A stretch of 64,000 bases of DNA from an uncultured Candidatus Micrarchaeota archaeon. GTDB lineage: Archaea > Micrarchaeota > Micrarchaeia > Micrarchaeales > CABMGC01. Below, one piece after another: positions 13,078 to 44,139 of the stretch. Numbering within the stretch: position 1 is the first letter of the stretch; the number at the start of each line of letters is the position of its first letter. A model generated the notes under the pieces. The model did not search any database and was not told the DNA's origin. It worked only from the letters and a program-made list of their open reading frames with translations. Location of the stretch: positions 114,845 through 178,844 of the forward strand of contig CAWHXT010000005.1 of assembly GCA_963833485.1 (NCBI GenBank). Reading direction: 5' to 3'. Made by a program: the position numbers and the translations under genes.

Positions 13078-13166
13078 GGGCTCCTAGCGCAACGGTAGCG
13101 CGCCTGCATGGCATGCAGGAGGTTGCGGGTTCGAAAGCTATACGCACGAAAATCCCGCGGAGTCCA
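13078..13166 (+). tRNA. tRNA-Ala(GGC) with 17-nt intron at 59/60 (13136-13152)
   Basis: Acceptor GGGCTCC/GGAGTCC with G3:U70; anticodon arm CCTGC-ATGGCAT-GCAGG; BHB-like motif TTCG/CGAA with AAA and AAT bulges in the T loop. Confidence 0.92.
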
Positions 13167-25771: not shown

Positions 25772-25860
25772 TGGGGTCGCCGAGATTTTCAAGTGTTATT
25801 TTTGAACTCGGGTCTTGTGCGCCCTAGGCACAGAGCCTAACCAAGCTAGCAGACGACCCC
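25772..25860 (-). tRNA. tRNA-Pro, anticodon reads AGG, 15-nt intron at 59/60 (25786-25800)
   Basis: GGGGTCG/CGACCCC-A; TGTGC-CTAGGGC-GCACA; BHB TTCA/TGAA in the T loop. Confidence 0.85.
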
Positions 25861-25903
25861 TGTCAGTATACTTTAGTATCAAGACCTTTTTATAACTCAT
25901 CCA

Positions 25904-26105
25904 TCACTTTCTTCCGTAGCTTATGATATCATCTATGAGATCGACATGGCTTATCATCATGCGCCTGCAGCAGTATCTCTTCACTCCGAGCTCGTCGAGC
26001 ACCTTTGCCGGCATCCTCGTGCTCCTTGTTGACCCGCCTGTCGTACTCCTCCCATTTGTCTGCGATCACTTGCCCGCATGAGAAACATCTTATTGGTATC
26101 ATCAT
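25904..26105 (-). CDS. rpoN: RNA polymerase subunit N (Rpo10), one frameshift
   Basis: [11 protein letters not shown]...[16 protein letters not shown] read across two frames. Confidence 0.9.
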
Positions 26106-26109
26106 GGTA

Positions 26110-26638
26110 TCATCTATAAGACGTCTGGAACCTCGCCCTAGCCTTTGGTCCTAGGAACTTCTTAGGCTCCACACGTCCTGACGTCATCGACTGAGCAGAG
26201 TCCTGTCATATTTCATGTAAGCCTTCTTTATCACGTCAGAGTTTGACGCGCCTGAGAGCACCTTTGCGACTGCAGTCCTTACGGCCTGTGCCTGCCCACT
26301 TACTCCCCCGCCATGCACATTTACCTTTATGTCGGAGCTGTTTGCTATCTCTTTAGTAAGGGTTGAGAAATTTATTGGCTCAAGCATGAGTTCTCTTATC
26401 TCCCTTGGCTTTAACATGTTTATCGCAACACTGTTTATAGTGAGGTTGCCCGTTTCCCTTGACCAGCCTGGCCCTCGCAACCGCATTCTTCCTCTTTCCT
26501 TTTGTGAAGACGACCTTAAGGTTTGGCGTGCCTTTTCTCCTTAACCTGGCGGGCTATCTTCTTTTCTGGCGGGGCTGTATCACTTGCTTATCTCCTTATT
26601 AAGATTGTCAACGCCACTTGTACTGGTGTTTCTACCAT
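26110..26638 (-). CDS. rps9: 30S ribosomal protein uS9, several frameshifts
   Basis: [16 protein letters not shown] and terminal [19 protein letters not shown]. Confidence 0.88.
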
Positions 26639-26643
26639 GAATA

Positions 26644-27085
26644 TCAACCTTTGAATCCTAGCTTCTTCAATAAGGTCGTTCGACAGAGACAGTGTCTTCG
26701 TAAATCTGCTTATGATTGCTTGGAGTTAACTTTCATTGAATGCTTGAGTCTCTTATATTCATCAGGCATGCCCGAGTAGACCCTTAGCAGCCTGAATGCG
26801 GTCTTGCCTTTGGTTTTTGTAAGGCAGCATTCCCCTAACCACTCTCTTAACAAACAGGTCCGGCCTCCTAGACCAGTATGGAGAGTGTTCAGGATTCGCC
26901 TTGTCCTTGAAATCGAAGCTTCTGCTTGTATTTGGCCTTGAGATCTTATGTGCCCGCTGATGAAAAGCCTGTCTGCGTTTATCAGTCACAACCTTGTCCC
27001 CTTTAAGCAACATCTTTGCTACCTGGCTCGCTACCCTGCCGAGCACTTTGTCCTTTCCATCAACAACTTTAACGTTTTCCTGCAT
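26644..27085 (-). CDS. rpl13: 50S ribosomal protein uL13, several frameshifts
   Basis: VVDG...LGRVASQVAKML, RRPDLFVKRVVRGMLP. Confidence 0.87.
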
Positions 27086-27092
27086 AAAAATC

Positions 27093-27431
27093 ACATCACT
27101 CATTCTTGGATTTGCTTCTTCAGCATGCTGTCAACTCCGATTATTTCACAGCCGTTCTGCTTAAGCTTGCCGATGCTCTTCTGAGTACTCCACAGCAGCG
27201 ATCTCAAACTTGTGTTAATAGTTCCAAATCCAAGAACCTTACCAGGAACTACTATGAACTCCCCTTTTTTGCAAGCTTGTTCAACTGATCGAGGTTGATA
27301 GTCTATCCTCGACCTCCTTGGCAGCGAACTAGCTTTGAATGCTCATCCACGCTTTGCGCTTTTAGACTTTGTCCATCTCGGCGATCGTACTCCCATGAGT
27401 TGATAGAATGCTTTTCTATCATACTTTTCAT
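27093..27431 (-). CDS. rpl18e: 50S ribosomal protein eL18, heavily frameshifted (boundaries approximate)
   Basis: Fragments such as PRRSR..INLDQLNK and VVPGKVL; conserved position between rpoD/tRNA-Leu and L13. Confidence 0.7.
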
Positions 27432-27447
27432 AATCATCAGTTGTGAA

Positions 27448-27548
27448 TGCAGGGGGAGAGATTTGAACTCTCGAAAGCACAAAGCTACAGGATTTCCAAA
27501 AATGAATTCCTTAGTCCTGCGCGTTTGACCAAGCTCCGCCACCCCTGC
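27448..27548 (-). tRNA. tRNA-Leu, anticodon reads AAG, 15-nt intron at 37/38 (27494-27508)
   Basis: GCAGGGG/CCCCTGC-A, long variable arm, CAGGA-CT-AAG-G[intron]A-TCCTG, BHB helix CTAA/TTGG. Confidence 0.9.
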
Positions 27549-44017: not shown

Positions 44018-44139
44018 CGCCAGGGTAGGGATTTGAACCCTAAAGCCCTTGCGGGCACTGGTTCGCTTGTTTTCGCATCACTAATCAGCTCTTGAGAAAA
44101 CCTCAAGACCAGCGCGTTACCAGATTCTGCCACCCTGGC
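44018..44139 (-). tRNA. tRNA-Ser(TGA) with 38-nt intron at 37/38 (44064-44101)
   Basis: GCCAGGG/CCCTGGC-G73, long variable arm GCCC-GCAA-GGGC, CTGGT-CT-TGA-G[intron]A-ACCAG, BHB helix CTTG/CAAG. Confidence 0.93.
44064..44101 (-). ncRNA. Putative intron-encoded minimal C'/D' K-loop guide for Um34 of the host tRNA
   Basis: GUUUUCUCAAGAG-CUGA-UUA-GUGAUGC; guide complementary to tRNA 31-39. Confidence 0.65.

Follow-up and report, generated by a model that had tools for sequence, protein, structure and literature searches.

Wobble-adenosine tRNA-Pro(AGG) and tRNA-Leu(AAG) genes in a Micrarchaeota family, probably read without modification

How does an archaeon read proline and leucine codons with tRNAs whose anticodons begin with adenosine? 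The question is raised by two tRNA genes, Pro(AGG) and Leu(AAG), on the minus strand of a 64,000-nt stretch of DNA (the window, G000:C5:114845-178844) from an uncultured member of the Micrarchaeota, a DPANN lineage. The source genome, G000, is a metagenome-assembled genome of 770 kb in 6 contigs with a G+C content of 43.6%; its estimated completeness is about 75%, and the assembly carries indel errors. According to reviews, Archaea lack all ANN anticodons and have no known deaminase specific for adenosine at wobble position 34 (A34) (PMC8007984, PMC8879553). A first-pass annotation of the window asked whether A34 stays unmodified in the two tRNAs or is deaminated by an unrecognised enzyme. This proved to be the right question, and the phyletic evidence leans to unmodified A34.

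Both are real genes. tRNA-Pro(AGG) spans 25772..25860 (89 nt, 74 nt without its intron), with G1 at 25860 and the discriminator A at 25772. Its anticodon lies at 25823..25825, A34 being the complement of T at 25825, within the loop C32 U33 A34 G35 G36 G37 C38; the anticodon stem is UGUGC/GCACA and the acceptor stem GGGGUCG/CGACCCC. A 15-nt intron (25786..25800), placed from the sequence and from an ARAGORN call after its removal, interrupts the T-loop at position 59/60, and UUGAA, in the 3' part of the intron, is able to pair with UUCAA in the T-loop. Introns of differing length occur at the same T-loop place in the Pro genes of relatives, and the same position has been described for ARMAN-2 (PMC3239211). 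The D-stem contains a U10.U25 mismatch, one of the odd bases that had been entered as a caveat at first pass; since it is conserved in all 29 readable orthologues, the odd D-arm is real. tRNA-Leu(AAG) spans 27448..27548 (101 nt, 86 nt without its intron), with G1 at 27548 and its 3' end at 27448. Its anticodon is at 27510..27512, A34 being the complement of T at 27512, and the loop reads C32 U33 A34 A35 G36 G37, followed by a canonical 15-nt 37/38 intron (27494..27508) and then A38. In the central helix of this intron, CUAA/UUGG, the UUGG strand pairs with C32-U33-A34-A35, so that U stands opposite A34, and 3-nt bulges at both splice sites complete a bulge-helix-bulge. Both genes form cloverleaves whose stems pair and which have U33 and a purine at 37, as intron-bearing archaeal tRNAs do; as read from the sequence, both introns are set in a bulge-helix-bulge or relaxed hBH motif, and the two anticodon loops and the UU opposite A34-A35 are as originally annotated.

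Neither gene was reported for the window by default ARAGORN or by a whole-window Rfam search at the gathering threshold. An Rfam search of the sub-region recovered the Leu gene (45.2 bits, E 7.6e-8, cut-off 29) and missed the Pro gene, while intron-aware ARAGORN missed the Pro gene and mislabelled the Leu gene Ser(aga) because it misplaced the intron. With the inferred introns deleted by coordinates, ARAGORN called a 74-nt tRNA-Pro(agg) and an 86-nt tRNA-Leu(aag). Standard tRNA finders thus miss or mislabel both A34 genes, and automated tRNA inventories of such genomes likely omit them.

The A34 of tRNA-Pro is a trait of the whole family. Our sample of the order comprised 248 genomes: G000, 117 others of its own family (f1), one of family f2 and 129 of the sister family f3. 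It includes two genomes flagged as unpublished, G003 (AGG) and G038 (GGG), without which the counts below become 104/116 f1 for AGG and 100/128 f3 for GGG. A pattern that spans the D-arm through G37 and includes U33 matched, in its AGG version, in 105/117 f1, 0/1 f2 and 0/129 f3 genomes, the last count applying to the f1-type D-arm pattern only, and its reversed control gave 0 matches; the GGG version matched in 3/117 f1, 1/1 f2 and 101/129 f3 genomes. Loci found by BLAST with the Pro gene in the 40 nearest genomes were also read individually: the orthologue carries AGG in G000 and in 22/22 f1 relatives, where the odd D-arm recurs and the T-arm has one or two introns, and GGG in all six readable f3 orthologues, each of them with U38 (one further locus, that of G028, comprised the 3' part only). 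When all species genomes were scanned, the AGG pattern was present at 104 loci. The anticodon stem is 5/5 paired in all 104, with 9 sequence variants including fully compensatory ones, and the acceptor stem is 7/7 paired in 103; positions 32/38 are U/A in 80 loci, C/C in 13, U/G in 10 and U/U in 1. Because the stems are paired and covary, the Pro(AGG) genes are real and under selection. The three f1 genomes with a GGG match are G073, which has both AGG and GGG, and G103 and G104, which have GGG only; all three are candidates for reversion, transfer or binning error, and G103 has an estimated contamination of 6% and a gene for a deaminase resembling that of G000 (P0001, below).

A second tRNA-Pro(AGG) occurs in the sister family. 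In G032 (f3, genus g27), whose genome is complete on one contig, Pro(AGG) has no intron, and its D-arm and anticodon stem match those of the genome's own Pro(CGG) and Pro(UGG); there is no Pro(GGG) among the 44 Rfam matches of G032. A pattern for this second tRNA body has A34, among the matches listed, in G032, G228 and G229 of g27 and in G175, G176 and G177 of a further genus, g52; g27 and g52 are the genera without the GGG pattern (0/3 and 0/5). BLAST for the f3-type Pro gene returned nothing in these genera, and their Pro genes were found through Rfam and the second pattern. Pro(AGG) therefore arose at least twice in the order and by two different routes. The f1 gene, now fixed in the family, would be an in-place descendant of a family-ancestral Pro(GGG), to judge from the shared locus, odd D-arm and T-loop intron, and the g27 and g52 gene would have come from one of CGG/UGG type.

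Leu(AAG) is sporadic. Its pattern is present in 5/248 genomes (G000, G175, G032, G228 and G229), and within f1 in G000 alone of 118. Leu(GAG) was read in 27 relatives, in 13 of them in the stretch upstream of the Pro gene, the syntenic position; this syntenic set includes the same-genus genomes G003-G006, and no match came from G001. The Leu(GAG) pattern had no match in any of the four AAG genomes tested (G000, G032, G228 and G175), and a control genome, G004, matched. All five Leu(AAG) genes have a 37/38 intron, U opposite A34, and A38. In the 12 intron-bearing Leu(GAG) genes read by eye, the base opposite G34 is C in 11 and U in one. Pro(AGG) is present in each of the five Leu(AAG) genomes; this nesting within Pro(AGG) lineages is suggestive, with three independent lineages only. 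Leu(AAG) arose at least three times in the order, and that of G000 would be a much younger change than Pro(AGG), from G to A at the syntenic Leu(GAG) gene. Separately, three Leu(GAG) genes have an apparent C33 in place of the near-universal U (L093 of G005, L091 of the unpublished G003 and L095 of G020; loops UCGAGGG and CCGAGGC).

The G34 synonyms of both tRNAs were not found in the G000 assembly. Its inventory, drawn from 33 Rfam matches read by eye and additional nhmmer matches, contains Ala GGC/UGC/CGC, Arg GCG/UCG/UCU/CCU, Asn, Asp, Cys, Gln UUG/CUG, Glu UUC/CUC, Gly CCC, His, Ile GAU/UAU, Leu UAG/AAG/CAA/UAA, Lys UUU/CUU, Pro AGG, Ser GCU/GGA/UGA/CGA, Thr GGU/CGU, Trp, Tyr and Val GAC/CAC. 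Every four-codon box other than Pro and Leu for which a tRNA with a purine at position 34 was found uses G34, including Arg, which has GCG and not ACG. The control within the window, tRNA-Ala(GGC) (13085..13141, plus strand, G000:C5:127929-127985; a partial Rfam match with a T-loop intron, read by eye), keeps G34, in agreement with the first-pass annotation. In this assembly, about 75% complete and with many non-canonical introns and indel errors, Met, Phe, Gly GCC/UCC, Thr UGU and Val UAC were not found, and neither were Pro UGG/CGG/GGG and Leu GAG/CAG; pattern searches for Pro(GGG) and Leu(GAG) gave 0 matches. Relatives possess the other Pro isoacceptors, Pro(UGG) in G009, G014 and G021 and Pro(CGG) in G010 and G023. 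When these genes were used as BLAST queries against G000, the yield was limited to fragments close to the end of contig C6 and a single false match in a coding sequence. Two Pro-like tRNA fragments lie there on the minus strand (G000:C6:110564-110600 and C6:112718-112749). One combines a D-arm of Pro type with the loop UUUUGGA and a T-stem that pairs poorly; in the other, a UUCGGGA loop and a T-arm are present but a 5' half could not be recognised. Disruption, splitting or mis-assembly of Pro(UGG) and Pro(CGG) genes may account for them.

If A34 were deaminated, which enzyme would do it? The supposition that G000 has no CDA-fold deaminase did not hold: it has a single CDA-fold gene, outside the window, that encodes the 137-aa protein P0001 (G000:C6:12162-12572), with HAE and CEPCxMC motifs. 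Among NCBIfam models P0001 matches TadA best, with 44 bits where the cut-off is 150, and in a PDB search guanosine deaminase, TadA, guanine deaminase and deoxycytidine deaminase all matched at about E 1e-11. Its family comprises 646 proteins at E up to 1e-5, mostly unnamed metagenome proteins, some of the named ones being labelled Nanoarchaeota or Pacearchaeota 'nucleoside deaminase'. P0001-like proteins occur in 13/248 genomes, namely G000, 2/117 f1 and 10/129 f3, with three weak matches only (34-49% identity) in the 40 nearest relatives; none was found in the other four Leu(AAG) genomes, and G103, which holds one, has Pro(GGG) and not AGG. Any member of PF00383 is present in 9/24 f1, 0/1 f2 and 9/15 f3 relatives. 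PF02137 and PF00962 have no match in G000, G023, G009, G032 or G039 (0/5), and G009, which is 97% complete and has Pro(AGG), matches none of PF00383, PF02137 and PF00962. G023 encodes a separate 209-aa TadA-like protein (74 bits) and a dCMP-deaminase fusion, and the PF00383 open reading frame of G032 matched no NCBIfam model. No deaminase co-distributes with the A34 trait.

The P0001 gene overlaps a gene for a HAD hydrolase; a conserved P0001-HAD operon was rejected, as the HAD neighbour is kept in 0/3 homologous loci examined. Just upstream of P0001 is a G+C-rich, tRNA-like 3' fragment consisting of a T-arm and acceptor strand (G000:C6:12038-12074, minus strand), adjoined by short GAGCGAGC repeats, and possibly a scar left by an integrated element. 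An integration footprint in the form of a direct repeat of this fragment was rejected, with no second copy in the 3.3-kb locus. Loss of Trm5, and so of m1G37, as a driver of the change, considered in view of the G36-G37 shared by both tRNAs, was likewise rejected, PF02475 being present in 5/5 genomes.

Codon usage bears differently on the two boxes. Codons were counted in open reading frames of at least 150 aa, from all of G000 and from ten 20-kb pieces of each other genome (samples of 44,828-52,653 codons), and the measure was the log2(C/U) of a box minus the same value for Ala, Thr, Val and Ser4 together. For Pro, the genomes with AGG gave -1.14 (G000), -1.22 (G023) and -0.90 (G009) in f1 and -1.26 (G032) in f3, and those with GGG, all of f3, gave -0.55 (G039), -0.82 (G208) and -1.24 (G142). 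A shift in Pro codon usage was therefore rejected: the A34 (-0.90 to -1.26) and G34 ranges overlap, and no codon effect can be attributed to A34. In a first small sample, CCC/(CCC+CCU) was 0.34 in f1 and 0.37 in f3; the Pro codons of G000 are CCU 31%, CCC 9%, CCA 40% and CCG 20%. For Leu, the genomes with AAG gave -0.19 (G000) and -1.67 (G032), those with GAG -0.45 (G023) and -0.17 (G009), and those in which no Leu(AAG) pattern was found +0.06 (G039), -0.52 (G208) and -0.46 (G142). CUC is thus strongly depleted in G032, a complete genome with Leu(AAG) and no P0001-like gene, relative to the five genomes without a Leu(AAG) pattern (+0.06 to -0.52). Poor reading of CUC is predicted by unmodified A34 and not by inosine at this position (I34), so the depletion in G032 counts for unmodified A34.

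We hold it to be probable, if far from assured, that A34 stays unmodified in Pro(AGG) and Leu(AAG), since published decoding data fit this state and no deaminase is co-distributed with the trait. We read both as functional, intron-bearing tRNA genes in which A34 has replaced the usual archaeal wobble G34. Pro(AGG) would read CCU, and also CCC by means of an A.C wobble to which two G-C pairs lend stability, CCA and CCG being left to the Pro(UGG) and Pro(CGG) seen in relatives; Leu(AAG) would be efficient at CUU and poor at CUC, and Leu(UAG) would serve as back-up. In Escherichia coli, an unmodified orthogonal tRNA with anticodon AGG gave 12.9% at CCU, 10.3% at CCC, 0.9% at CCA and 1.0% at CCG, and with anticodon AAG 4.3% at CUU and 1.5% at CUC (PMC11066159). 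These values would fit a replacement of Pro(GGG) by Pro(AGG) without a cost in codon usage, and a Leu(AAG) that reads CUC poorly, in line with the signal in G032. In relatives such as G009, an A34 tRNA gene stands in a genome in which no A34 deaminase was found.

Several observations weigh against unmodified A34. G000 itself encodes the TadA-like P0001, with zinc and catalytic motifs, and no intact Pro(UGG) or Pro(CGG) gene was found in its incomplete, indel-bearing assembly. To our knowledge no gene has been assigned to the archaeal deaminase that forms m1I57 in tRNA, and a tRNA adenosine deaminase of a fold yet to be recognised may exist. Relative CCC use is alike in A34 and G34 genomes, so that Pro codons offer no positive sign, and CCC is frequent at high G+C content: at 28% of Pro codons in the sample of the GC-rich G023, it must be read well. 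The CUC signal of G032 is that of one lineage, and the absence of CUC depletion in G000 (-0.19) is also compatible with I34 there.

An enzyme of an unrecognised kind might instead convert A34 to inosine in the Micrarchaeota family, the two sister-family genera and ARMAN-4/-5, which would give these lineages a eukaryote-like I34 decoding of CCU/CCC/CCA and CUU/CUC/CUA; we regard this as unlikely, though worth keeping in view. Such an enzyme might be related to the archaeal tRNA m1A57 deaminase, for which we know of no identified protein. An exchange of G34 for A34, accompanied by disappearance of the G34 gene, is what marks I34 systems (PMC8879553), and the likeness to eukaryotes was pointed out by Fujishima et al. 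(PMC3239211). CCC remains frequent, with no extra depletion in A34 genomes; the depletion of CUC in G032, however, would not be expected of an I34 that is good at reading C. Each Leu(AAG) genome has Pro(AGG) already, as if a permissive factor were shared, and the same two tRNAs have changed in ARMAN-4/-5, but such a factor cannot be proved from three or four independent events. No CDA-fold, ADAR-type or amidohydrolase-type deaminase is common to the A34 genomes, G009 being without all three, and one of only two P0001-like holders among the 117 other f1 genomes, G103, has Pro(GGG).

Editing might also be confined to G000, with P0001 acting on A34 of Leu(AAG) and perhaps of Pro(AGG) while relatives use unmodified A34; this we consider improbable. 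P0001 has the zinc and catalytic motifs, with TadA as its top NCBIfam match and among its best PDB matches; yet the match is far below the model's cut-off, and guanosine, guanine and deoxycytidine deaminases match equally well in the PDB search. G000 is the sole f1 genome of 118 with Leu(AAG) and one of 3/118 with a P0001-like gene, but the other four Leu(AAG) genomes do without one. The overlap with the HAD-hydrolase gene suggests nucleotide salvage, although this context is kept in none of the three homologous loci. G000 differs from G032 in its undepleted CUC, which a recent switch to Leu(AAG) would explain equally well.

The quality of the assembly bears on the least likely explanation. 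The genes between the two tRNAs (25900..27440, minus strand, located by tblastn of relatives' open reading frames), presumably L18e, L13, S9 and RpoN by the conserved archaeal gene order, contain frameshifts: the relatives' proteins each map to two frames of the window, which bears out the indel-rich stretch remarked on at first pass and points to single-base assembly indel errors rather than pseudogenes. Matching peat-metagenome contigs came from two sets only (share 0.05) and differ from the window by 1-nt indels at ten places across the compared stretch; among public RNA data sets no match to it was listed. They cover both anticodons, and all T>C differences listed in them lie outside 25825 and 27512, which lends weak support to A34 being kept there. 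Errors of assembly behind the two A34 calls, or decay of the genes into pseudogenes, are very improbable despite the frameshift-type errors of the region and the failure of standard finders on both genes: this explanation is refuted for Pro by A34 in 105 of the 117 other family genomes, and it sits poorly with covarying stems, with Leu(AAG) in four other genomes carrying the matching intron base, with both A34 in the peat contigs and with the lack of any G34 synonym.

Several other tRNA genes of G000 are unusual. Position 59/60 of the T-loop is also interrupted in Leu(CAA) (C5:354949-355046), in the Ala(GGC) mentioned above and in Arg(CCU) (C2:30031-30117), and the D-arm region in Leu(UAA) (C5:39422-39500) and Ile(GAU) (C5:377221-377290); Rfam gave only partial or weak matches to these genes. 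About 2 kb before the start of the window is a tRNA-Ile(UAU) with a 29-nt canonical intron (G000:C5:112773-112876). ATA is by far the commonest Ile codon of G000 (ATA 9210, ATT 3214, ATC 3489), and Ile(UAU) is reported for all three ARMAN lineages (PMC3239211). The 72-nt intron of tRNA-Trp (G000:C6:93849-93993) contains GAUGAUGA and UGAUU stretches, perhaps a C/D-box guide RNA. The tRNA-Ser(UGA) at 44018-44139 of the window has a long anticodon-loop intron, of 30 nt according to ARAGORN and with 41 inserted positions according to Rfam, that also contains UGAUUAGUGAUG.

The pair of A34 tRNAs is not new to archaea. Fujishima et al. described Leu(AAG) and Pro(AGG) without G34 synonyms in ARMAN-4 and -5 in 2011 (Nucleic Acids Research, PMC3239211); the pair has been known since then and little noticed. 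In our literature search that paper was the only one to report them, for ARMAN-4/-5; no report of A34 tRNAs in Micrarchaeota and no test of the modification state was found. New here are the fixation of Pro(AGG) across a Micrarchaeota family, its two routes of origin, the nesting of Leu(AAG) within Pro(AGG) lineages and the negative deaminase profile. The archaeal exception is thus no stray gene, being fixed in more than 100 species-level genomes and always in the same two boxes. Should A34 prove unmodified, this would be the largest natural clade to decode with an authentic wobble adenosine, and the A.C wobble observed in engineered E. coli could be tested in nature; should it prove to be inosine, Archaea would possess a tRNA deaminase yet to be described, together with a eukaryote-style decoding of the Pro and Leu boxes.

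Compared with ARMAN-4/-5, G000 has the same two A34 tRNAs, no G34 synonyms found, a tRNA-Ile(UAU) and an ultrasmall DPANN host; the lineage within DPANN, however, is another one. ARMAN-2, itself a member of the Micrarchaeota, carries two T-loop introns in its Pro(GGG) and an unusual D-arm in its Pro(CGG)/(UGG) (PMC3239211), whereas Pro(AGG) is fixed in the family studied here. Our analysis also differs from the ARMAN-4/-5 report in the second origin of Pro(AGG), the sporadic Leu(AAG) and the examination of deaminase distribution and codon usage. The eukaryotic ADAT2/ADAT3 system, with its tRNA-Pro(IGG) and tRNA-Leu(IAG), likewise has A34 genes in place of G34 genes for the CCN and CUN boxes (PMC8879553, PMC8007984). 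Unlike in that system, no ADAT/TadA orthologue tracks the trait, and one or two boxes are affected while the others keep G34. Among bacteria, the Leuconostocaceae have extra A34 tRNAs, Leu(AAG) and Thr(AGU), together with TadA (PMC8007984). There too Leu(AAG) replaces Leu(GAG) in a prokaryote, but here a TadA-like gene is present in G000 and not in the other four Leu(AAG) genomes. The tRNA-Thr(AGU) of Mycoplasma capricolum reportedly has a naturally unmodified A34, and a Salmonella tRNA-Pro A34 mutant is said to read CCC. The mechanism proposed here would be that of such natural tRNAs and of the orthogonal ones in E. coli (PMC11066159), A34 reading U and, in G/C-rich boxes, C as well. Those cases are single species or engineered, whereas the trait described here extends over more than 100 species-level genomes.

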